Below are positions 971 through 17,330 of a stretch of 17,566 bases of DNA, piece by piece; the stretch's first letter is position 1; each line of letters opens with the position of its first letter. The stretch is from Anaerolineae bacterium (GTDB lineage: Bacteria > Chloroflexota > Anaerolineae > S140-20): contig JALUTT010000019.1 of NCBI GenBank assembly GCA_027021705.1, forward strand, positions 1 to 17,566, written 5' to 3'. Made by a program: the position numbers and the translations under genes. The notes under the pieces were generated by a model. That model had not been told where the DNA came from and searched no databases. It saw only the letters and a program-made list of their open reading frames with translations.

Positions 971-3900
971 GGCTCTTCCTTGCTCGCAGATACGGCTTCC
1001 AGGGTCAGGGCCGGTAGTTGGATGGTGAAGCGTGCGCCTCCCTGGGGGCGGTTCTCTGCCCGAATGCTCCCCCCGTAGCGCTCGACGATGCTCAGGCTGA
1101 TGCTCAGCCCCAGTCCCGTGCCGTCGGGCTTGGACGTGAAAAAGGGCTCAAAGAGATGGGGCAGGATCTCCGGGGGAATGCCCGGTCCGGTATCTTCGAA
1201 GACGACGTGTGCTTCCTGCGCGTCCCTTACCCACCGGGTGGTGATTTGGAGCTCTCCCCCTGTGGGCATCGCTTCGATGGCGTTCAGAATGAGGTTCAAA
1301 AAGACCTGGCTGAGCTGCTCTTCGGAGGCGAGGACGGGCGGCAGATCGGGAGCCAAGTCCTGGCGCACGACGATCTGGCTGTGCTGAAGCTGTTTGCGCG
1401 TCAGCACCAGGACGTTGCGCAACACCCGATGGAGGTTGAGGGGCCTTCCCGTCTCCTGGCGAGGACGGGCGAAGGCCAAGGTCTGCTCCACGATGCGCAT
1501 CAAGCGGGTGACCTCCTCCTGGGTGATGCGGAGGATCTCCTCCCGCTCCTGATCGTCCATCGGGAACTGGAGCAGCAGGTGCAAGCTGTTGTGAATGGCT
1601 TGGAGGGGGTTGTTGATCTCGTGAGCCAGCGAAGCGGCCAGTCTTCCCAGGGCGGCCAGTTTCTCCGTCTGGATCGCCCGGTTCTGGAGGAGCCGCTCCT
1701 GGGTGACATCGCGCACCACCTGGACGGCCCCCGTGATCTCACCGTTGTGATCGAAGAGGGGGTAGGTGCGCACGGCCAAGACGGCCTTCCCGTCGGGGGT
1801 CTCTATCTCGCCCTGATGCAGGTGGCCTTCCTGCAGCGTCTGCAGGGAGAAACAGATTCCGTTGGATGGACCCCATCGGCGGAAGATCTCACGGCAGGTG
1901 CGTCCGACGATCTCCTCGGCAGGCTGACGCAGCAGGTGGGGGACGGCGTTGTTGACTCGACGAACGCGCAGGTCGGAGCCGTAGATGATCAACCCGTCGG
2001 TAATGCCGTTGAAGGTTGCCTCCCACTCCACCTGCGCGTTGCGCACTTGCTGGTGGAGCCGGGCATTGGCGATGGCTGCGGCGGCCGACACCGCGATGGC
2101 GCTCAACAACCGTCGGTCCTTGCCATCGAAGGGCCCCGTCCGCTTGTTGAAGAGGGCCACAACTCCCACCACGTCTTCCTGATGGGTTAAGGGAACGGCG
2201 AGCACCGAGCGCACCCAGGACGGCGGTGCCGAGGGGAGCATCGCCGTGAGCTCCCGTTGGGTGAGTCGAAGGGTCCGGTGGCGTTGGACAACCCTCTCGA
2301 TGAGGGGCTGGAGGGGGGCGAGGCGATGGGGCGAGGGTGTCGCCTGACCATCGCTGTGGACGATCTGGAGTGCCGGCCTTTCCTCCTCCACCAACCAGAT
2401 GGCCCCATCCTCGCTCTCCAACAGCTCGCAGGCCGCCTGGAGGGTGTTGGCCAGGACCTGGTCCATCTCCAGGCGCGAGCCGATGAGGTGGGCGATCTGC
2501 ATCAGCGTTTCCCGTTCAGCCGCTTGCTCCAGCCCCAGGTTGAAGAGTTCGGAGTTCTGAAGCATCAAGGCGACGCCGGAGGCGAAGGCTTCGGCCAGGT
2601 CCTGGTCGGTCTGGGTGAAAGTACGATCGCTCCCCGGCGCTTGGGTCAGGTAGAAGAGCCCCCACTGGCGCCCCGGAGTGCACAGGGGAATGCCTAGAAG
2701 GGCTCGGGGCAAGGGAGGCAGGGCACTGGGGAGATCCCTCTGCTCCGCAGGGATCACGGCCGACAGGCGGATGGTCTGGCCACGCCAAGGCTTGCCCAAC
2801 ACGCGATGGGTTCGCAACGCTGTGAAGTGAGCCCGGGAACGGGTCAACGGGGCAGTACCGTGGATCAGGAACTCGATCACCTCACCGTAGGTATCGGTTA
2901 GGATCAGCAGGCCTGAGTGGGCGTTCACCAGACGGACGACCCAGCCCAGGAGGTCTTGCAGATCGGATCTGTCCAAGGGGAGACGTCCTATCAGGTCCTG
3001 GAAGGCACGGGTCAGGACCTCCAACTGGCGGGCCCGGTGCACCATCACCTGCCGGCTCTCCTCCAGCGAGGCGTAAAGGCGGGCGTTCTCCAGGGAGACG
3101 GCGATCTGGTCGGCCAAGGTCTGGAGCAGGAGTTGCTCGTCCTCCGTCAAGGGGTTAGGCTGGTGTCCTCCTACATCCAGGACGCCCAGGACCCGCTCCT
3201 GGGTGCGGAGGGGGAAGATTAGGCGAGGGTAGAGGGCACCCAGCGCCTTCGAGGGGAGTAGGCGTGCAGCCTGGTGGGGATCGGACACGGAGACCTGCAG
3301 TCCTTCCCGGGCTGCTTGGTAGATGCCGCTGTCGGGAGGCAGCGGACGCCCGCCGATCTCGGTCAGCAAAGGGGCGGCCAGAGGGCCGGCAGCGATGGTG
3401 TAGACCAGGTCGTCTCCCTCCCACATAGCCAGCCCGACGAAGGGGTATCCCATCGCCGCCTGGATCAACTCGACCGCTTCGTGGAGCAGGCTATAGGGAG
3501 TGCGCAGGGTGCTGAGCCGGTGGCTGAGCTGGTTGATGAGAAGCAGGCGGTCCGAGGGGACGAAGGATGGTCGGTGCACTGCCTGGGAGGCCAGGTTCCG
3601 GGCCACCCGGATGGCCGCGGAGGTGGAGAGCCAGTGGGCGATCCGCTCCCGGAGCTCAAACGGGGAGAAGGGCTTGGAGATGAAATCGTTCGCCCCGGCG
3701 GTCAGCGCCCTTCGACGGTCCTGCAGAGAGCCCCGAGCGGTCAGGAGCACGATCGGGACATCTGTCAGACCAATCTCCTGCCGGATCGCCTGGCAGACGT
3801 CGTAGCCGTCCACGTCAGGCATCATCACGTCCAGCAGGATCAGGTCAACGGTGTCGCCTTCTTCCCGAAGAAAGTCCAGGGCTTCGTTCCCGGAGAAGGC

Positions 3901-6809: not shown

Positions 6810-7123
6810 CTATTCGTGTCCTATCCGCCCGGTGATTGCCCCTATCTTTGGAGATAGGGAGACGAGCCGTCCACGAATGGGGCACGAATACACGAATGAA
6901 GGACCGCCTCCTTCGTGCATTGGTGAGCAATTCGTGGACGGCCTGCTACGGACCACCCTCTCGCTCCCTTGTGGGGAATCACCGCCTATCCGCGGTTTGA
7001 CCGTTCCTCCGTTCCTCGGTAATTGGGAAGGCCGGAGCCCCTCCGACCGCCGGTCGGACACTTCGGCGGCCGAGCGGGTCAGAGAAGCTCCCTGCGGGGG
7101 GAGGGAATACCGTGAATTGTTAC
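6806..7123. mobile_element. Degenerate MITE-like segment bounded by termini of the same family as the 8481-8602 element
   Basis: The right end read in reverse is GTAACAATTCAC...CCTCCCCCCGCAGG, compared with GTAACTGTTCACCCTCCCGCAGG at 8481. A weaker left end GCATCTATTC...CCTATCCGCCCG (from 6806) resembles GTATCTATTCAGCCTACCCTCCCG. No clean target duplication. Confidence 0.5.
6866..6942. repeat. Long imperfect palindrome (REP-like) built from CACGAAT units
   Basis: Perfect 13-bp arms GCCGTCCACGAAT (6866-6878) and ATTCGTGGACGGC (6930-6942). Inner arms CACGAATACACGAA / TTCGTGCATTGGTG match 12/14, and GAAGGA pairs with TCCTTC. An adjacent 8-bp hairpin CCCTATCT-ttgg-AGATAGGG lies at 6840-6859. Confidence 0.75.
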
Positions 7124-7217
7124 CGACTACTACAACCAGAGACAGGCCCAGGAGGCCGTTCGTGCTGCGGCAGAGATCATCCGGTTCTGTGAAGATCATC
7201 TCGTTGGATCGGGATGA
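7124..7217 (+). pseudogene. 3' remnant of a HEPN-domain gene (toxin partner of the MNT)
   Basis: The frame from 7122 reads TDYYNQRQAQEAVRAAAEIIRFCEDHLVGSG*, which resembles the C-terminal helix of COG2250-type HEPN proteins that overlap a downstream MNT. There is an in-frame TGA at 7113-7115 and no start codon or recognisable N-terminal half upstream. Confidence 0.75.
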
Positions 7218-8619: not shown

Positions 8620-9699
8620 TCACTGCGCCTCCTGGGAGAGCCCTCCGGCCTGCACCAGCAACTCGGCGTTGAGGATTGCCCCGCCGGCCGCACCCCGCAG
8701 CGTGTTGTGGACGAGGGAGACGAGCCGGATGTGCAGCAGGGGACAGCGGCGTATCCGCCCTACGGTGACTGCCATCCCCCCCTCGGCGTCCCGGTCCCGC
8801 CGGGGCTGCGGACGGTCGGGCTCCTGGCGGACGATGAGGAGCCGTTGCGGCGCGCTGGGCAGCGCTGCGACCTCCGACGAAGGACGGTAGTCCCGCAGGA
8901 CCTCGGCCACCGCCTCGGGCGTCGGTTCTGTGGCAAACCCAATGGACAGGGCGGCCAGGTGGCCGTCGAAGACCGGCACCCGGTGGACCTGGGCGCTGAG
9001 GGTGATGGGGGCTTCCTCCACGCGGTCGCCCACGACCCGCCCCAGCAGTTTGCGGGGCTCCTGCTCCAGCTTGTCCTCCTCCCCTGCGATGTAGGGGATG
9101 ACGTTGTCCAGGATTTCCAGTGAGGGGACGCCGGGGTAGCCGGCCCCGGAGACCGCTTGGAGGGTGACGATCTGGACCTGGCGCACCCCGAAGGCTTCGT
9201 GGAGCGGCTTCAGGGGGAGGACAACGCCGGTGGTGGAGCAGTTGGGGCTGGTGACGATGAAGCCGGGCCAGCCCCGCCGCTGTTGCTGGTGGGGGATGAG
9301 GGCCAGGTGGTCGGCGTTGACCTCCGGGATGAGGAGGGGCACGTCGGGGTCCAGCCGGTGGGCGGAGGCGTTGGAGCAGACGGCGTAGCCGGCGGCGGCC
9401 AGGGCTGGCTCCACCTCCCGGGCCACGCCCGAGGGGAGGGCGGAGAAGAGGAGCCGCGCGTTGGGCGCAGCAGCGGCCAGGGCCTCCGGCGTCGAGGGCA
9501 GGACGGTCATCTCCCGCACCGCCTCCGGCATCTCCCCCGGCACGACCCAGCGGCAGGCTCTTCCGTAGGGCTGCCCCGCCGAGCGCTCCGAGCCGGTCAG
9601 CGCGGCGATGTGGAACCAGGGATGGTCGGCCAGGAGCTGGACGAAGCGCTGGCCCACCGCGCCGGTGGCCCCTAGGATGGCAACGGGGATGTGAGGCAT
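8620..9699 (-). CDS. asd: Aspartate-semialdehyde dehydrogenase (archaeal/fungal-like clade)
   Basis: ILGATGAVGQRF NAD-binding motif, SNAS, PEVN, catalytic PNCST, QAVSGAG, RVPVFDGH and HNTLRGAAG. ATG at 9699 has an AGGAG RBS. Confidence 0.95.
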   Translation of the reverse strand: MPHIPVAILGATGAVGQRFVQLLADHPWFHIAALTGSERSAGQPYGRACRWVVPGEMPEAVREMTVLPSTPEALAAAAPNARLLFSALPSGVAREVEPALAAAGYAVCSNASAHRLDPDVPLLIPEVNADHLALIPHQQQRRGWPGFIVTSPNCSTTGVVLPLKPLHEAFGVRQVQIVTLQAVSGAGYPGVPSLEILDNVIPYIAGEEDKLEQEPRKLLGRVVGDRVEEAPITLSAQVHRVPVFDGHLAALSIGFATEPTPEAVAEVLRDYRPSSEVAALPSAPQRLLIVRQEPDRPQPRRDRDAEGGMAVTVGRIRRCPLLHIRLVSLVHNTLRGAAGGAILNAELLVQAGGLSQEAQ

Positions 9700-9768
9700 A
9701 GACTTCTCCTTAGCTACCCTTGTCCGGCAGAGGGGCCGTCTGATCCTCAAAGTGTGGGACGTTGGCCA

Positions 9769-12700
9769 TCATACTGCGGTAGGAATCTGCCACCGGGTCA
9801 CGATCTTCTGGCCATCGTGCATCCACACCAGCACCGCCTGAGGCAGCGGCCTCGGCGTCCGGTAGTACCAGACCCCTTGCCTGGGAAAAGCGACCCGACG
9901 CATCGGGTTATCGTCCGGGTGGTCTAGGATAGAGACAAAGGCGATCTGGGGAGAGATCCCCTCGAAGCGGTACCCTTTCCCCACCAGTCTCTCCCGCCAG
10001 CTTTCATCCACGCCGTAGAGGTCGAAAGCCTCTTCCTCAAGCCAGGCCTCGTGCTGGACGACCTGCATCCACCGTAACATCACTGTTTCACGCTCTTTCT
10101 CCAGACGGCCTAGTGGTTTGTCAACTGAGATTTTGGTGGGCGCGAAACAGCCTTATAGGGAGGTGCTCACACCCACAAATTCGGGGTTGACGGTCCACTA
10201 GGAAGCGGACTACCTCTCCGGGAGAGCGAGGGAGAAGGACATGGTGGGGGATCTGGGCTATTGGATACTGCCGCAGTTCATCACGGTTGGTTTCCAGGTA
10301 GAGGCGCAGGTATCGTAAGACGTCGGGAACTTCGCTTTCAATGTAGGAGAACGGTTGTTTGCGCAGGATGAGCCGCCGGCCTTCAATCTCAGACATCGTC
10401 GGAGGCCCGCCTATGTGCCAGGAGACGAAGCTTCCGGCGATGAACAGGTCTCCGTAAGGGATGTTCCAGAGATCGAGGAAGGGCCGTGGGTTGAGCACGA
10501 TGTCCTCTTCGCTGATGCGGTGCCCCTGTTCACGCCATTGGTGCAAGTCCTCTCGGGCGGCGACGATCTCGTCCACCACCTGAGCAATCTGGGCCTGGGC
10601 ATCGGCATCGGCGGGCGCGATGGGGTACTGCCTCAAGTTATCGGGGTAGAAGTCAATTCGGCCCTTGGCAATCTTCTGGAAGATGTAGCGAGATAGCCAA
10701 CGGCAGTTGAGCAGAGCGACCAGGTACCTCAGGTCATAGTCGGGGGAGTGCTGAGCAGCCCGCACCAGGGCCTCACGCACAGCCTGACGGTCTAGGGTGC
10801 GGTTGTGAACTTCGAGCAGCCGGTGGGCTGGAACGGCACAGATGACGGTTGCATCGCAGTATAGCTCCCCTTGAGCATCGTAGTACGCCTTCAGGGAACC
10901 CCGGTGAGGACGCCGTGCAACCAGCAGTTTCTCGTTCTCGAAGAGCTCGGGGAACTTCTTGCGCCGGAGTTGGCCGGGTACACGAACCGTCCCCCATTCC
11001 AGCCATCGTATCCGAAGGACCTGGAAACGATCCAGGTCTTTGCCCTGAACGAACTTCTTGGGGTGCTTGGAGTCTGGGGTATCGGCCAGCAGGTCTTCCG
11101 TCACGAAAAGCTTGCGGCGTCTCCCCGCTTCGTCCCTCGGATCCAGGTCCTCGTGCGATACAGGAGCAAGGCCATAGCTGATGTAACAGAGGTCGCCCAA
11201 GGTCGGGTAGCCTGCGAAGTCAAGCTCCTCTTCCCCCTTGAACTCAGGGCGGAAAATCCTCTCGCCCCATCGGCGTTGGGAGAGGGCAGGGAGGCGCTTA
11301 ATGTCCATCTCCCGCAACCGCGCATCCACGATTTTGAAGCGTTGCACCCGATGCCCCTTTGGAGGGGCGCCTTGCCGGACCGCGTAAATCAGGTTGTACA
11401 CCTGAGCTTCGGCGAAGAATTTGATCCCAGGAGCGAAGGTGAGACTTTCGATGGTGGTTTTCTCCAAGATCTGTTGTCGGGAGAGGTGGGCGTAGGCTTC
11501 CGTCTGGTAGGCATCGGAGACGATGAAACTGTGGCGTCCCCCATCGGCCAGTAGGTCCAAGGCGAGCTCGATGAAAGGGATGTACAGGTCCCACTTCTTG
11601 TGGAGCGTCTTGTAGCGCCCGCTGGCTTGAATTTGCTCCCGCAGAGGGGCCACACTGGGATGGTCGGCCCGCACGTAAGGCGGGTTGCCCACGATCCAAT
11701 CGAACCCCCGGCGGAAGTCCAGCCGGAGTGCAGGATTGTACCCACGCCGCTTGATGAGCTCGGCCACTTCCGTTTCATAAGCCAGCCCGTTGTCCGGCCC
11801 AACCAACGGACGAATCTCCTGCGCCCGGGGGAGTAGGGCGTTCGTTGCATAGATGTGGAAACGTTCCACGGTGAAGTGGTCCCCCTCGCGCACCAGGTCC
11901 AGCACCTGCACCAGCAGATTCACCTCGGCCAGAAAACAGGCAAAGCGGTTGACGTCCAGCCCAAAGAGGCTATCGCGCACGTATTCGTTCACCAGCGTCT
12001 TAGGCTCTAGGTCCGGGTACTTTTGGCGTAGGGCCTTGATCAGCCGGCGGGCAGCTTCCACGAGAAACCGACCGCTGCCACAAGCGGGGTCCAAGAGTCG
12101 CCGACCGATGGTGGCCTCTCCCTGATACCCCACCCGATCTAGAATGTAGTTGACTACCTGGGGAGGGGTGTAAAACTGGCCCTTCCGCTTGCGCTCCAGC
12201 TCATCCACGTACTGTTCGTAGATGTGTCCGATAAGGTCCGCGCTCACCTGGCTGAAGTCGAAGCGATTCAACAGGTGGAAGAGGCGCACGATCGCCTCCT
12301 CTTCCCACACGTACCAGTCGAAGATGTCCCGGCTGAAAAAGTGTCCGTAGATGTGGCTGGTGTCCCTGTAGGCGAGGTCCAACAGTGTGCGGTTGGCCTC
12401 GGCCAGATAGGTGAAGAATTGGCGGCTGAAGTGAAGGTAGTCTCTGTACCCCCCATCAGAGATCTTCTGGGTGATCAGCCCTTTGTCCTCACAGATACGG
12501 ATGAGCAGGACACGGGTGACGAAGATGTAGACTGTCTGAAGGCAGAACTCGACCTCGTAGTCCTCGGCCATCGGCCCTGTCTCGTCCTGCCATTGGGCAA
12601 AGTTCTCCACAATCACCCGACTAGGGCGCAGCTTCACCGCTTGTCGGGCACGCCAACGGGCGTAGTCCACGAGAGCCCGGTAGAAGGAGCGCAGCCGGTT

Positions 12701-13660
12701 CTGGAGGTTGACGTGGTTTGCTCCTTGGACGTACCGGTCCAACCCGGATCGGCGTAGAAAAGCGCTCACGAAAGCGGGCTCTTCGATAGCCGTCCACTGT
12801 TCGGTGAAGTCTTCCAAATAGCGCTCCAGGGCCGGACGGTTGACGGTCACCCGGGTCTGCTTCTCAAATGTTTCGAGCCATGTCCACAGTTTGGCTTGCT
12901 CTGCCTCGACCACCGCGCGCCGCTGGGCTTCCTCGGCCTGGAAGGCCCGGTAGAGGGCTTGATGACTGCGAAAACGGAGGAGCACGAGCCGGTGCAGGCG
13001 ATGGATCTCCCGCTTAAGCCCCTCGATGAGGAGGGCTTCGTTTTGGGGATTGTCCGGCGAGAGAGAGAGCCCCGGCTCGGTAGTTTCGGCAATCTCTCGC
13101 TTAAACCGCTCGGTATCCAGGAAAGCTCCCTTGCGGAGAAGGTCGAAGAAGGCCAGGAGGGCCAGACGTTCGTCTTCCGTTGGCGGTCGTGGTGCGTTGG
13201 GGGCGAAGGCGGGCAAGGAGAAGGAGTGGACCCAGTGGAGCCTGTCCCCTGCCCAGGTGTAGACACGGACCTCCTGCCCGTTGGTCAGAACACCGTAGCG
13301 AGCGCTCACGGCGAGCAGATAACGGGCCAGTTGGTCCTCGTAGCGCGTTAGGTCTGCCTCCTGGGTACGCTTCAGCTCCCACAGCATTGCCGGAAGATCG
13401 TTGGCCCTGACCAGGATGTCAATGGCACCCTCCTTCACACGGTGTTCCGGGTCCAGATCGGTCTGGGGATCGTATCCTAACGCCTCCAGGAGGGGTTCGA
13501 CGATCTTGAGACGCACGACAGCTTCATCCGAGGCCGTGGGATGAGCGTTGAGGTAGGCCAAGTACGTCTGGCCGTGGTGTCGGAATCGGGCCAGGATTTG
13601 GCGCACCGCATCCCAGGGGGTGCTCTCTTGACCTTCCAGGAGGAGAATTTGCCTCATCAT
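9769..13660 (-). pseudogene. Type IIG-like fused restriction endonuclease / N6-adenine methyltransferase / TRD gene, interrupted near its 3' end by a MITE (currently 1179 aa; 1267 aa when reconstructed)
   Basis: N-terminal HsdR_N-like PD-(D/E)xK nuclease (LLEALGY...IDIL...WELK...QLARY...LTNG). MTase motifs GQFYTP, LDPACGSGRFL and VGNPPY, followed by a TaqI_C-like TRD. The segment 10110-9769 continues the frame once 88 bp are removed and contains the typical terminal EEEAFDLYGVDE helix. Confidence 0.88.
10113..10198. mobile_element. 86-bp MITE with TA duplication in a CTAG target (IS630/Tc1-like ends)
   Basis: TA at 10111-10112 and at 10199-10200. Ends GTGGTTTGTCAAC and (reverse) GTGGACCGTCAAC match 10/13, and the imperfect IR extends over about 30 bp. 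Excision restores the RM reading frame. Confidence 0.88.
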
Positions 13661-15099
13661 CCTTCACCGGTCAGTTGGTGGAGCGCCCGGACCGCTTCGT
13701 CGGCCTCGTCGGCGGTGACGACCAGGGAGATGCTGCACTCGGAGGAGCCCTGGGCGATGGCGATGACGTTGATCCCCCGTTCCCCCAGGGCGCTGAAGAT
13801 GCGGGCCGCCACCCCCGGCGTCTGGCGCATCCCGGCCCCGACGACGGTGACGATGGCGACCTCCTCCTGGGCCCAGACCCGGTCAATGTCCCGCCGCAGC
13901 AACTCCAGCGCCATCTCCTCCTCGATGGCGGCCACGACGGGGGCGACGGCCGGTGTGGGGATGACGAAGCAGATGCTCTGTTCCGACGAAGCCTGGGAGA
14001 TCATCAGAACGCTGGTGCCGGTGCGGGCCACGGCGGCGAAGGTGCGGGCCGCCACCCCCGGCACCCCCATCATCCCCGTCCCTTCGACGGTGACCAGGCT
14101 CATCCCCCGGATGAGGGTGACTGCCTTGATGGTGCCCGGAACGGCCTCGGACGTTCGCACGATCAGCGTGCCGGGCCGGTCAGGGTAGAAGGTGTTCTTG
14201 ACCCGCAGGGGGATGCTGCGCTCGACGACGGGCCGGATCGTCTTGGGATGCAGCACTTTGGCCCCGAAGTAGGCCAGCTCCGCCACCTCGGTGTAGGAGA
14301 GGACGGGGATGGTGCGGGCCTCGGGGACAATGCGTGGGTCGGCGGTCATCACGCCGTCCACGTCGGTCCAGATCCAGACCTCGTCGGCCCCCAGGACGGC
14401 CCCCAGGATGGCAGCGCTGTAGTCGGAGCCGCCCCGCCCCAGAGTGGTGGTAATGCCCTCGACCGTGGCCCCGATGAAGCCGGTGACGATGGGAAGGATC
14501 CCCTGGTCCAGCAGCGGGGAGAGCCGCTGTTGGGCCCGCTCCCGGGTTTCGTCCAGCAAGGGGTTGGCCCCCTGGAAGTGGTCGTCGGTGACGATGACGC
14601 CGGTGGCGTCCACCGCTTCGGCCGGGGTCCCCTCCTGGCGCAGGCGGGCGGCCAGGATGCGGGCGCTGAGCTGCTCACCCAGGGAGGTGACAGCATCCAG
14701 GGCGCGGGGGGTGACCTCGCCCAGGATGTGCAGGCTGCGGCAGAATTCGTCGAAGCGGGCCAGGTAGTCGTCCACCGTGGCCAGGAGGTCGTGGCGCTCG
14801 CCCTCGGGGGCCAGCAGCCCGTCAATGGCGGCGTAGTGGCGAGCCCGCAGGTCGGTGATGAGACGACGGCAGTGCTGGTGATCACCGGTGATGGCCGTCA
14901 ACGCCCCCTGGGTCAGGGCGTCGGTCACGCCGCTCATCGCCGAGACGACGGTGACCAGCCGGGGCCATTGGGCGGCGGTGGCCCGGACGATCTCGGCGGT
15001 GCGCCGGATCGCTTCGGCGCTGCCCACCGAGGTGCCCCCGAACTTCATCACCAGCAGGTGCCGCTCCTCTTGCTCGGCCGGGGAGTCCTGGGCGGTCAT
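13657..15099 (-). CDS. lysC: Aspartate kinase with two C-terminal ACT domains
   Basis: VMKFGGTSV, VVSAMSGVTD, SLGE, TTLGRGGSDYSA, WTDVDGVMTADPR, YFGAKVLHP, and ACT repeats ISQASSE and IAQGSSE. ATG at 15099 overlaps the hom stop (ATGA) and has a GGAGGGG RBS. Confidence 0.93.
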   Translation of the reverse strand: MTAQDSPAEQEERHLLVMKFGGTSVGSAEAIRRTAEIVRATAAQWPRLVTVVSAMSGVTDALTQGALTAITGDHQHCRRLITDLRARHYAAIDGLLAPEGERHDLLATVDDYLARFDEFCRSLHILGEVTPRALDAVTSLGEQLSARILAARLRQEGTPAEAVDATGVIVTDDHFQGANPLLDETRERAQQRLSPLLDQGILPIVTGFIGATVEGITTTLGRGGSDYSAAILGAVLGADEVWIWTDVDGVMTADPRIVPEARTIPVLSYTEVAELAYFGAKVLHPKTIRPVVERSIPLRVKNTFYPDRPGTLIVRTSEAVPGTIKAVTLIRGMSLVTVEGTGMMGVPGVAARTFAAVARTGTSVLMISQASSEQSICFVIPTPAVAPVVAAIEEEMALELLRRDIDRVWAQEEVAIVTVVGAGMRQTPGVAARIFSALGERGINVIAIAQGSSECSISLVVTADEADEAVRALHQLTGEG

Positions 15100-16208
15100 C
15101 GGCACCCCTCCATCTCCAAGGCCAGGCTGATGATGTCGCTGAGGACACCGGCGGCGGTGACCTCGCCACCGGCTCCCTTGCCGACGATGGTGAGGGGGGA
15201 GACGGCGTAGCGGCTGGTGAAGAAGCTGACCAGGTTCTCCGGCCCCTGGAGGGTCCCTAGGGGGCTGGCCTGGGGCACGGCCCGCAGCCCCACCCGTCCG
15301 CCCCGCTCATCCACCTCGGCGATGTAGCGAAGCGTCCGCCCTTCCTTGTGGGCTGCCTCAACCCGTTGGGCGAACCGCTCGTCCTCTTGCGCGATGGCCT
15401 CCATAAAAGTCTCCACGGGGCAATCGGCCAGCGCAGAGGGGTAGAGGGGCTCAACTTCCAGATCGTCTAGCTCTAGCGGCCAACCGGCGATGCGCCCCAG
15501 GACCAGGAGCTTGCGGGCCACGTCCACCCCACCCAAATCTTCGCGGGGGTCGGGCTCCGTGTACCCCAGCTCCTGGGCCTGGCGCAGCGCAGTGGAGAAG
15601 GGGACCTCCAGCTGCAGTTGGCTGAAGATGTAGCCGACGGTCCCGCTGAGCACCCCTTCGATGGCCGTCACCCGGTCCCCGCTGTCCAGGAGTGTGCGCA
15701 GGGTGGCGATGACGGGCAGGCCCGCGCCGACGGCGGCCTCGCAGCGCAGACAGCGGGTTTCGAAGAAGGGACGGGCCTGGGGCCAGGGGCCGGCCAGAGG
15801 GCGCTTGTTGGCCAGCACGGCTCCCCATCCCTGCTCCAGGGCTTCGCGGATAACGGCCTCCATCCCTTCAGCGGCCGTCACATCCACCATAATGGTCAGC
15901 CGTTCGTTGAAGGCCGAGACAGCCTCGATGACCTCCTGATCCTCTTCCTTCGTCTGGGCACCCGGGTACTCGGCCAGAGGGCGCCCTTGGGCTTTGCCCT
16001 GGATGACTTCCCGGATGGCCTCGTCCCTAAGACCCTGGGGGGCCACGAGCAGCCCATCGCTGTCGGCCAGGGCGACGACGCGCAGGTAGAGGTTTGTCCG
16101 AGCGGCAATGGTGGATCGGGTGGCGACAATTTGGCTGAGCAAAGCCCGTCCCACCTGCCCCAGGCCAAAGACGACCACGTTTACCTCACGAAGTTCGGCC
16201 ATCGGCAT
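15096..16208 (-). CDS. hom: Homoserine dehydrogenase (monofunctional, no ACT domain)
   Basis: VFGLGQVG Rossmann motif, LANK, EAAVGAGLPVI, GVLSGT, GYTEPDPREDLGGVDVARK and GAGGEVTAAGV. An alternative start lies at 16202. Confidence 0.93.
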   Translation of the reverse strand: MPMAELREVNVVVFGLGQVGRALLSQIVATRSTIAARTNLYLRVVALADSDGLLVAPQGLRDEAIREVIQGKAQGRPLAEYPGAQTKEEDQEVIEAVSAFNERLTIMVDVTAAEGMEAVIREALEQGWGAVLANKRPLAGPWPQARPFFETRCLRCEAAVGAGLPVIATLRTLLDSGDRVTAIEGVLSGTVGYIFSQLQLEVPFSTALRQAQELGYTEPDPREDLGGVDVARKLLVLGRIAGWPLELDDLEVEPLYPSALADCPVETFMEAIAQEDERFAQRVEAAHKEGRTLRYIAEVDERGGRVGLRAVPQASPLGTLQGPENLVSFFTSRYAVSPLTIVGKGAGGEVTAAGVLSDIISLALEMEGCR

Positions 16209-16226: not shown

Positions 16227-17330
16227 TCAGATTGAGGCCCCTTCTGCGGCGGCCACGTAGGTCCGCAGGAAGGTCAGGTGGGCGGTGATCACCTGACCGA
16301 ATCCACTGCTTTCCTCGCGCTCCAGCATTGCGTACAGCGCTTTCAGGACCTGGTCGTGCATTCCCACGGTAAAGCCGTATCCCAGTTCCTGGACCAGGTC
16401 GAGGACGTTGCCGCGTACCTGCTCGTCCTTCTCTCGGGTTAGGGCGGCCAGCAGGGCCTGGAGCAAGGGTTTCATCCCCAGGCTGCGGACGAGGAAATCG
16501 GCCCCCCAGGTCACGTCGAAGGGGTGACGCTGGCGCAGCGTGTTGAGCAGTAGGTAGCTGTGGAGCCGCTGGTTCTCAATGTACGGGGCCAGGTGGTAGA
16601 CGGCGCTGACCAGCAGCATAGCGAGCCGCCGGGGGGATTCGCCCACCTGGGCGGCGACCTCCTCGGGTAGGGGCATCTGCTCGAAGATGAGCCCGCCCCG
16701 CCGGTAGGTCGGGATCACGTTGGGATCGTGCTCCAGCAGGTCCAGCAGGAAGGGCACCACCCCATCAGGACCGAGGACTTGGCTCAGCCGGCTCAGCAGG
16801 GAGACGATGGGAGTCTGTTCCACAGAAGCGGGGGGAGCTTCCACCCGGCCCAGCAGCCCGGACGGCTTCGGGGGAGAGGGGGTGTCCCGCTCAGGGTGGA
16901 AGCTGGCTGCGATGAGGCCAAACCCCTTCTCTCGGAGGAGGCTCACCTGCTGGGAGGGGAGGGGCTTGTAGGACAGCCGCTGCCGGGGCGGGGCGGAGGT
17001 GTCCCGCATTCCCCAGCCGGCCAAGGAGAAGTCGGGTTGCAGGGTGTCGGCACCGGGGACACCGATCTGGCGCAGGGCCTCCCAGGCCGACGGGAGCGCT
17101 TCGTGGGGCTGGAGCCAGTAGTAGGGAGTTCCATGGGTGCAGAGCCCAACCACCCGACCCTGCTGGAAACGGAGCAATCCCGCCCCTATGACGTGTTTCT
17201 CCTGTCCCAACCAGCTCAGGTAGAAGCTTCCCCGAATGCTGGGTTTGGGCTTCCATACCAGGTTGCCCTGGTCGTCCAACACGTACCAGAACTCTCCATC
17301 TTGGGGTTTGGTTTGAGGTAGGACAGCCAT
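16227..17330 (-). CDS. Hypothetical protein, 367 aa: small beta-rich N-terminal domain, Pro-rich linker, helical (HEAT-like) C-terminal region
   Basis: Long ORF co-oriented with hom, GAGGG RBS, a promoter directly upstream and an 18-bp gap to hom. No confident family assignment. Confidence 0.75.
   Translation of the reverse strand: MAVLPQTKPQDGEFWYVLDDQGNLVWKPKPSIRGSFYLSWLGQEKHVIGAGLLRFQQGRVVGLCTHGTPYYWLQPHEALPSAWEALRQIGVPGADTLQPDFSLAGWGMRDTSAPPRQRLSYKPLPSQQVSLLREKGFGLIAASFHPERDTPSPPKPSGLLGRVEAPPASVEQTPIVSLLSRLSQVLGPDGVVPFLLDLLEHDPNVIPTYRRGGLIFEQMPLPEEVAAQVGESPRRLAMLLVSAVYHLAPYIENQRLHSYLLLNTLRQRHPFDVTWGADFLVRSLGMKPLLQALLAALTREKDEQVRGNVLDLVQELGYGFTVGMHDQVLKALYAMLEREESSGFGQVITAHLTFLRTYVAAAEGASI

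Follow-up and report, generated by a model that had tools for sequence, protein, structure and literature searches.

The mobile elements and restriction enzymes closest to the case analyzed here are described in several papers. [quoted passage not shown] Of the 147 MITEs in Anabaena sp. 90, 15 are located within disrupted open reading frames (ORFs) (PMC3542288), and insertions of IS elements and MITEs into cas genes, as well as of IS elements into other defence systems, have been described as natural variation between strains (PMC10359306). Among restriction enzymes, the truncation of the EcoDXXI hsdS gene (Type IC) by Tn5 is the classic case, yielding an active enzyme with a new specificity (PMC3874165), and a Type IIG enzyme of Campylobacter jejuni is phase-variable via a simple repeat (PMC4889913). 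Here, we analyze a stretch of 17,566 nucleotides from an Anaerolineae bacterium (contig JALUTT010000019.1 of assembly GCA_027021705.1; hereafter, the window), in which an 86-bp IS630-type MITE lies inside a gene for a predicted Type IIG-like restriction enzyme. We consider it very likely that a recent insertion of this MITE, presumably moved by the transposase of a resident IS630-family IS, split a solitary Type IIG-like gene, by which the enzyme was truncated and its tail orphaned.

The split gene and its relatives

The interrupted gene lies on the minus strand. Its first 1154 codons (10199..13660), coding for a fused nuclease, N6-adenine methyltransferase and specificity protein, match the Pfam domains HSDR_N_2, N6_Mtase and Eco57I and are 99.7-99.8% identical to three intact proteins. 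They are continued by 25 codons and a TGA stop (10121..10198), giving an ORF of 1179 amino acids (aa) at 10121-13660, of which the last 25 residues (VDRQPRICGCEHLPIRLFRAHQNLS) and the stop itself (10123-10121) lie inside the element; these 25 residues align to none of the homologues. On the other side of the element, the frame is open from 10110 to the stop at 9769 (9769..10110, minus strand), which amounts to 113 codons and includes a 104-aa ORF (9769-10083) starting at the GTG at 10083. When the element and one TA (88 bp) are removed in silico, a single stop-to-stop frame results, in which 1154 codons lead up to the junction and are followed by 113 more (114 if the count starts at the junction codon); from the ATG, this makes 1267 aa.

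The relatives of this gene carry both parts in one piece. Searched against longer proteins (101 candidates), the 113-aa tail matched 10 proteins at E <= 0.001, namely seven of 1245-1291 aa with the Pfam domains of the upstream ORF, and three fragments. The best match, P0003 (1271 aa), bears the source name [quoted passage not shown]. Residues 2-1154 of the truncated protein, P0001, align without gaps to residues 1-1153 of P0003 at 91% identity, and residues 2-110 of the tail protein, P0002, align to its residues 1155-1263 at 83%; in all 10 homologous proteins exactly one residue separates the body alignment from the tail alignment. Eight proteins make up the 90%-identity cluster of P0003: the truncated P0001, four proteins of 1271 aa including P0003, and three of 1267 aa (P0164, P0166 and P0169). 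These last three are 99.65-99.83% identical to P0001 over its residues 1-1154 and, over their residues 1155-1267, 97-98% identical to the tail. All three read VVRFLGRLEKERETVMLRW over the junction (VVRFL-GRLEKERE), and they run from ...VVRFL GRLEKERETVMLRW... to ...WQIPTAV, exactly as the earlier note on this DNA had predicted for a restored product of 1154 + 113 residues. Judged by sequence, a single 1267-aa gene has thus been divided into the 1179-aa “enzyme” and the 104-aa “hypothetical protein”.

The same arrangement is found at the level of genomes. Scanned with the tail alignment (A1), species-representative genomes gave 10 loci, comprising nine true relatives and one chance-level match of 29 residues; the nine, titled as Anaerolineae, Anaerolineales or Chloroflexi metagenome-assembled genomes (MAGs), include seven near full length and two cut by contig ends. 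A search of the species-representative genome contigs based on P0003 returned no relative. A metagenome scan gave five loci, these being the window, the intact loci L032 and L035, L034 with a frame change, and an orphan tail, L033. One frame runs across the junction in all nine species-representative relatives, in L032 and L035, and in G033, a genome of the same class but another family, where the 60%-identical gene has a junction spacing 88 bp shorter than that in the window. The collinearity over the junction that the earlier note had suggested checking was thus found in 10/10 database proteins and 9/9 genome loci.

A few loci show the tail by itself or the gene in a damaged form. In the 62%-identical homologue of L034, the frame changes at 3537-3540, close to residue 1111 and some 43 codons upstream of the junction, which may reflect a pseudogene or a sequencing error. 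Orphan tails of about 100 aa occur in other metagenomes: L033:1300-1671, P0019 (131 aa, on a 17.9-kb contig), P0020/P0162 (102 aa) and P0127/P0163 (100 aa). The L033 tail stands behind an unrelated 253-aa gene, with homology starting at the codon that matches L1153, at most one codon from the MITE site in the window, and the end of P0127 is frameshifted.

Such stand-alone tail ORFs could be taken to mean that the C-terminal piece is normally a separate small subunit, so that the window would hold a natural two-gene arrangement. We give this next to no credence. The two parts in the window are out of frame with a mobile element between them, the closest relatives (99.7%) are fused, and 19 of the 19 relatives carrying both parts are collinear, counting L034 with its upstream frame change. 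The stand-alone tails themselves look like remnants, considering that the end of P0127 is frameshifted and that L033 comes without an enzyme body. At this locus, the fused 1267-aa proteins and the empty-site contigs described below effectively refute a two-gene arrangement.

The element, its copies and the empty site

The element occupies positions 10113..10198 (no strand assigned) and is bounded by the terminal inverted repeats (TIRs) GTGGTTTGTCAAC and GTTGACGGTCCAC. Read over 10100-10210, the plus strand runs ...GACGGCC-TA-[GTGGTTTGTCAAC...GTTGACGGTCCAC]-TA-GGAAG. The left TA of the duplicated target (10111..10112, no strand) is part of a CTAG together with the first G of the element; the right TA (10199..10200, no strand) is recognized from the sequence and from comparison with the empty site. 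An inverted-repeat finder reported imperfect arms at 10109-10135 and 10176-10202, 27 nt long and 74% complementary, with the flanking CTA/TAG included. RNA of the gene-sense strand of the element folds into a single long hairpin of -44.1 kcal/mol, compared with -23.0 +/- 3.1 for shuffled sequences (z = -6.8; 0/200 shuffles fold equally well). The element has no coding capacity, and it is a multi-copy sequence.

We identified its copies within the source assembly (5.19 Mb in 183 contigs; genome label G000, in which the window is contig C19). BLAST found eight full-length copies and a partial one of 36 nt: four of the full-length copies are 100% identical (on C96, C67, C19 and C10), two are 93% and two 92% identical, with E-values from 5e-39 to 2e-28, and two further matches of 14 nt are at chance level (E 4.7). 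Because eight full-length copies occur in the same genome at such E-values, the element lies far beyond chance. In a search of 40 relatives, the element part of the query matched its own genome only. Six of the eight full-length copies have a TA on either side, and a CTAG is restored in all six; the remaining two have TA/TG and AA/AA flanks. The earlier note's reading of the element as one of IS630 type, with a TA duplication within CTAG, is supported.

Some copies have unusual surroundings. The 100%-identical copy at C10:24735-24820 (L004) is the one with AA/AA in place of TA flanks, and lies within a GCAAGTTGCAAATTGCAA-type simple-repeat run. At C67:44924-45134 (L002), a MITE copy is followed, directly across a common TA, by an end of the full IS, constituting a tandem or nested insertion at one TA. 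One and the same flank (...CCATTCGTGGACGGCTA|) adjoins the MITE copies at C82:29793 and C71:17173 and an IS end at C83:38722, and the other flank of this site is found in reverse complement at C56:140406; the target bordered by CCATTCGTGGACGGCTA seems itself to be either a sequence that is repeated or a hot spot. We also considered the junction in the window as a recurrent CTAG hot spot in the gene family. This idea was rejected, since among 11 loci bearing the MLRWM motif a CTAG upstream of it is found in the window only; four more loci that carry no exact MLRWM motif were not scored.

A genome-wide scan for the end pattern returned 61 matches, including the MITE ends and two more end types, which we attribute to an IS. 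Both of these begin TA-GTGG(T/C)TTGTCAA; of the 13 copies of them that the scan picked up, 12 follow a CTA and one follows a GTA. End A (GTGGTTTGTCAAGTTTGAATTTGTGG...) occurs at nine places, at the ends of contigs C28, C67, C83, C128, C141, C148, C161 and C167 and internally on C4; end B (GTGGCTTGTCAAACTTGATTTTATGAG...) occurs at six, at the ends of C6, C13, C70, C99, C104 and C178. In other words, 14 of the 15 IS ends sit 121-165 nt from a contig end, and therefore a multi-copy repeat broke the assembly there. From the common repeat, the TA flanks and the behaviour at contig breaks, we infer that ends A and B belong to one IS.

What has been assembled of this IS points to the IS630 family. 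End B is followed by an ORF start, MNKRYIVRLTEEEREYLHELVSTGK. Only one copy of end A is internal (C4:4242-4363, 96% identical); before it lies the 3' part of a transposase gene, and the assembled IS interior is limited to this frameshifted copy (C4:4242-4863). The transposase sequence behind end A matches Pfam DDE_3 (PF13358) at 60.3 bits (cut-off 28.6), and two transposase fragments match the NCBIfam IS630 model NF033545 over profile positions 136-299 at 79 and 31.9 bits, both below the cut-off of 100 bits, which is set for full length; the 79-bit score stays under it because only a 158-aa fragment is assembled. The left end of the MITE equals end A over the first 12 nt, and its right end has GTGG...GTCAA...GAATTTGTGG in common with end A, so that both MITE ends resemble the same IS end, over about 26 nt. 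This extent fits the 24-30 bp per end that are enough for ISY100. On these similarities, an IS630-family transposase presumably moved the MITE in trans. Of the earlier note's proposal to look for an IS630 transposase with the same ends, the matching ends and the DDE_3/NF033545 fragments were recovered, and an intact full-length gene was not among the assembled sequence.

The site itself is also found without the element. Four public runs (X1 to X4), all labelled hydrothermal vent metagenome, contain the stretch; X1, from study P1, is the possible or probable source run, and X2-X4 belong to a second study. The runs were examined as contigs, which can neither reveal rare variants nor show the absence of an allele, and these were compared with the window over 9400-10900. 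Contigs from X2 (record 9, 4873 nt, depth 12), X3 (record 14, 155 nt) and X4 (record 23, 291 nt) join position 10109 directly to 10198 and skip 88 bp, the four letters that could be placed on either side being a single CTAG. The longest contig recorded for the intact protein P0169 is also 4873 nt, the same as that of the X2 contig. Compared with the window, the X2 contig shows eight differences in 710 letters left of the joint and one in 703 to its right. The element at this site is thus a presence/absence polymorphism, empty in the contigs of X2-X4 and filled in the window.

In X1, the left contig ends at 10134, after entering the element by 22 nt, and the one on the right begins at 10198. 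This run has a depth of about 1000-1500 over the element against about 70 in the flanks, a ratio that we do not read as a copy number. Considering that the X1 unitigs break at the element and that no listed single piece spans it, the element might be misplaced in the window through a mis-join in the repeat. We regard such an artefact as very improbable. The left unique flank enters the element by 22 nt to 10134, which is the limit set by 31-mers, and the right flank starts at the last base of the element; the duplicated TA and the CTAG target are just as in the other copies; and an element of 86 bp is shorter than usual reads, so that reads would span it.

The start of the right X1 contig deserves a remark of its own. 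It coincides with the first base common to both alleles, and does not lie about 26 nt further into the element, as a 31-mer graph of the filled allele only would predict. This start could stem from a minority empty allele, or equally from a co-occurring 90%-identical relative with a common 30-mer.

As for polarity, the outgroup protein (1271 aa, 90% identical) is likewise intact, and the insertion is therefore the derived state. The sequences thus indicate that the intact form is ancestral and the insertion recent and derived, a single insertion in the lineage of the window being the simplest history. Relative to the three intact alleles and the outgroup, the window allele carries four derived amino-acid changes, of which the body (1154 codons) and the tail (113 codons) have two each (Fisher p = 0.04), which gives a faint hint that constraint on the severed tail may be relaxed.

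On this basis, we propose that the non-autonomous 86-bp MITE entered a CTAG in codon 1154/1155 and duplicated its central TA, presumably using transposase supplied in trans by the resident multi-copy IS630-family IS. With 88 bases added, the frame is shifted, such that the enzyme stops after 25 element-encoded residues, and the last 113 codons remain as an orphan ORF.

The earlier note had further suggested that precise excision could turn the enzyme back on, making the locus a possible heritable ON/OFF switch. Under this explanation, the MITE would enter and leave the site often, leaving precisely at an appreciable rate, by transposase or by slippage between the CTAGs, and the population would hold ON and OFF states of the enzyme, and the OFF form or the orphan tails of other metagenomes might serve some separate function. 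Filled and empty alleles do both occur in nature, and the empty one is free of a scar. A strong hairpin bracketed by 4-bp direct repeats is present as well; hairpins bracketed by short direct repeats favour precise deletion, and slippage across the hairpin, from one CTAG to the other, could conceivably remove the element precisely. The four identical copies point to recent activity, and the start of the right X1 contig at 10198 could come from a minority empty allele or from a co-occurring relative. However, the two alleles come from different samples and studies and are separated by the 8/710 letters and the four derived amino-acid changes, and because they differ by these other substitutions they represent different lineages rather than phases of one clone. 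The outgroup being intact, a single insertion explains everything, and scar-free empty alleles are also what never-occupied sites look like. In addition, the cuts made by an IS630-family transposase fall 2 nt inside the 5' ends, and simple rejoining would thus leave a scar and not restore the site (PMC2170065). The empty-site joint is not listed among the X1 contigs; as contigs drop rare variants, this carries no weight either way. We therefore judge the switch to be distinctly unlikely: it gained no support from alleles that are seen only in different samples, and they do not refute it.

The enzyme and what the cut removes

The product of the split gene is, by prediction from its sequence, a Type IIG-like fused enzyme with both cleavage and methylation activity. 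It combines an HSDR_N_2 nuclease-type domain (residues 46-136, 33.5 bits; cut-off 25) with a gamma-class N6-adenine methyltransferase (residues 473-761; Eco57I 72.7 bits, N6_Mtase 70.8 bits) and shows a weaker similarity to MmeI_Mtase (29.5 bits). PADLOC matched it to Type II methyltransferase, PglX, mad2 and Type IIG models, with E-values down to 3e-23 for the REase_MTase_IIG models. The NCBIfam models for PglX of bacteriophage exclusion (BREX) systems remain far under their cut-off (71.8 vs 400 bits), and relatives in the PDB, searched by sequence, cover methyltransferase cores only. In the translation we read IDILV...WELK, DPACGSGRF and GNPPY, all conserved in the consensus of alignment A2, which we take to be a PD-(D/E)xK-like motif, motif I and the NPPY motif, respectively. 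No genes for a partner subunit, BREX or another system stand beside the enzyme; its neighbours code for aspartate kinase, homoserine dehydrogenase and aspartate-semialdehyde dehydrogenase. Since these are housekeeping genes, we regard the enzyme as solitary and fused, with a Type IIG architecture. Considering that in such an enzyme cleavage and methylation use one recognition module, losing it would not be suicidal for the cell.

To describe the severed part, we made use of P0008, a 522-aa C-terminal homologue fragment. A phmmer search of the full database with P0008 found 413 proteins at E <= 0.001. Among the best 150 of these, the match goes past position 500 in nine, as far as 481 in one and to 413-437 in five; the others cover only about 18-300, most of them ending soon thereafter, some 30 residues past the core. 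Because so few of the best 150 matches reach that far, the last ~220 residues constitute an extension of a small subfamily, and the MITE site falls in the middle of it. An AlphaFold2 model of P0008, built from a 26-row alignment, has a mean predicted local distance difference test (pLDDT) of 74.8 and a predicted template modelling score of 0.71, with pLDDT > 90 over about residues 300-520. It consists, in order, of a poorly modelled recognition core, a helix (268-293), an alpha/beta part (297-393), a 39-residue helix (396-434) and a beta-sandwich (448-520). The segment 297-520, corresponding to about P0001 1048-1154 plus the tail, is thus confidently modelled, is found in the small Anaerolineae subfamily only and has no family assignment.

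The junction corresponds to residue 404 of P0008, eight residues into the helix 396-434. Foldseek of the model against the PDB gave no match at E <= 0.001, and for the 113-aa tail, Pfam, NCBIfam and the ESM Atlas gave nothing usable, the Atlas model of the tail being poor (pLDDT 0.37). In VIA-align, the top matches were CamA (Z 7.6), PglX (7.3), the PacII S subunit (6.9), MmeI (6.3) and Type I HsdS chains (5.2-6.2). The HsdS-type alignments cover about residues 55-440 of the model, and for many coiled-coil entries, 48-88 residues (48-70 in most cases) could be aligned to residues 266-436, meaning that the model pairs the two helices. From this homologue model, the cut would take away one of two paired helices, which form a scaffold similar to the one in Type I specificity subunits, together with the terminal domain. 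Given that it takes most of the long paired C-terminal helix and the terminal beta-sandwich, the truncated enzyme is probably inactive.

Alternatively, the truncated 1179-aa product, with its nuclease, methyltransferase and core recognition domain retained, might still work, with an altered specificity or as a methyltransferase only, as in the Tn5 truncation of EcoDXXI. The cut leaves the PD-(D/E)xK-like motif, motif I and NPPY, which lie upstream of it, intact; the recognition domain in most relatives stops about 30 residues after the core and has no extension; and the truncated EcoDXXI HsdS gave a new palindromic specificity (PMC3874165). Nonetheless, the extension is kept in every intact member of the subfamily in alignment A2, and the cut lies inside a confidently modelled helix. 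The distribution of derived changes (2/113 in the tail, 2/1154 in the body) hints at decay of the tail only, and is silent on the body. We therefore consider a working truncated enzyme unlikely.

Several points nevertheless weigh against a split and disabled gene as we describe it. The filled allele rests on one assembly, and the X1 unitigs break at the repeat. An intact full-length gene for the cognate transposase is not in the assembly, where the IS interior is unassembled and the C4 copy frameshifted. The ~220-residue C-terminal extension is present in only about 10 of the 150 best representatives, and as the canonical recognition core upstream appears untouched in sequence, the truncated product may be partly active. 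All structural matches have Z < 8, at which a match may mean no more than a common arrangement. Judging by where the cut falls in the model, the shortened enzyme would probably be misfolded, inactive or crippled.

The genes around the split gene, which the earlier note had described as an amino-acid operon, are intact, the frames of hom, ask and asd all being open. The aspartate kinase gene (13657..15105, minus strand) ends in a TGA that overlaps the ATG of the restriction gene (ATGA, 13657-13660), and the aspartate-semialdehyde dehydrogenase gene (8620..9699, minus strand) lies immediately downstream of the split gene. In four of six asd loci from relatives (L026, L027, L029 and L031), ask stands directly upstream of asd with nothing between. 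Because of this adjacency, the 3.8-kb defence gene looks like an insertion into a conserved operon. We also considered the element as a terminator or promoter for the downstream asd; this was dropped, as no intrinsic terminator was found in 9600-10400 and the lone weak promoter-like site there lies outside the element. Elsewhere in the window, a 367-aa ORF (16227-17330, minus strand) and a 129-aa ORF (6810-7199, minus strand) had no Pfam or NCBIfam match at the thresholds used.

With the exception of the switch, the sequence-based claims of the earlier note held: its coordinates and numbers are all correct, the 86-bp hairpin at 10113-10198 does split the gene, with eight copies in the genome and an 88-bp-shorter empty site in three runs, the 25-aa tail and its TGA come from the element, and the 104-aa ORF is the lost C-terminus.

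Comparison with known systems

The locus is a clean natural case in which a miniature transposon truncates and would disable a defence gene in an uncultured hydrothermal Chloroflexota bacterium, with the alleles before and after the event both public. In practical terms, the annotation is corrected, as the 1179-aa and 104-aa ORFs become one 1267-aa gene, and an apparently unnoted IS630-type MITE is described together with its presumed parent IS, which break the genome assembly in at least 15 places. The case is an ordinary though well-documented transposon knockout of a defence gene, adding one more data point to the idea of a trade-off between mobile elements and host defence and opening no new question.

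In its make-up, the element resembles the IS630/Tc1-mariner MITEs known for ISY100 and IS630, with a TA duplication, a preference for CTAG, short imperfect TIRs in common with a resident IS, a lack of coding capacity and near-identical copies. Unlike in those models, the family here comes from an uncultured Anaerolineae-type genome, and both ends of the MITE resemble end A. Within the limited body of literature searched, no paper describing an IS630-type MITE inside a Type IIG gene, or a restriction switch built on a MITE, was found.

As in C. jejuni, a Type IIG enzyme is altered by a mutation inside its gene, which in that species turns expression ON and OFF (PMC4889913). There, however, a hypermutable repeat mutates reversibly at high rates, whereas here the change is a transposon insertion that shows no sign of reversal; a switch at this locus, if true, would be a transposon-based form of restriction phase variation. 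The EcoDXXI case is alike in that a transposon truncates the C-terminal part of a recognition module made of recognition domains and paired helices (PMC3874165), and differs in that the module here is fused to catalytic domains and in that a new specificity is known for EcoDXXI only. With the IS and MITE insertions into cas and other defence genes, the window has in common that a mobile element disrupts a defence gene and that strains vary in this respect (PMC10359306); the target here is instead a fused Type IIG-like enzyme, of which only the C-terminal 9% is cut off. Finally, like the small hairpin MITEs of Anabaena sp. 90, the element produces a pseudogene in a repeat-rich genome, but whereas the Anabaena MITEs come without a matching IS (“type II”; PMC3542288), a matching IS630-family IS is present here.

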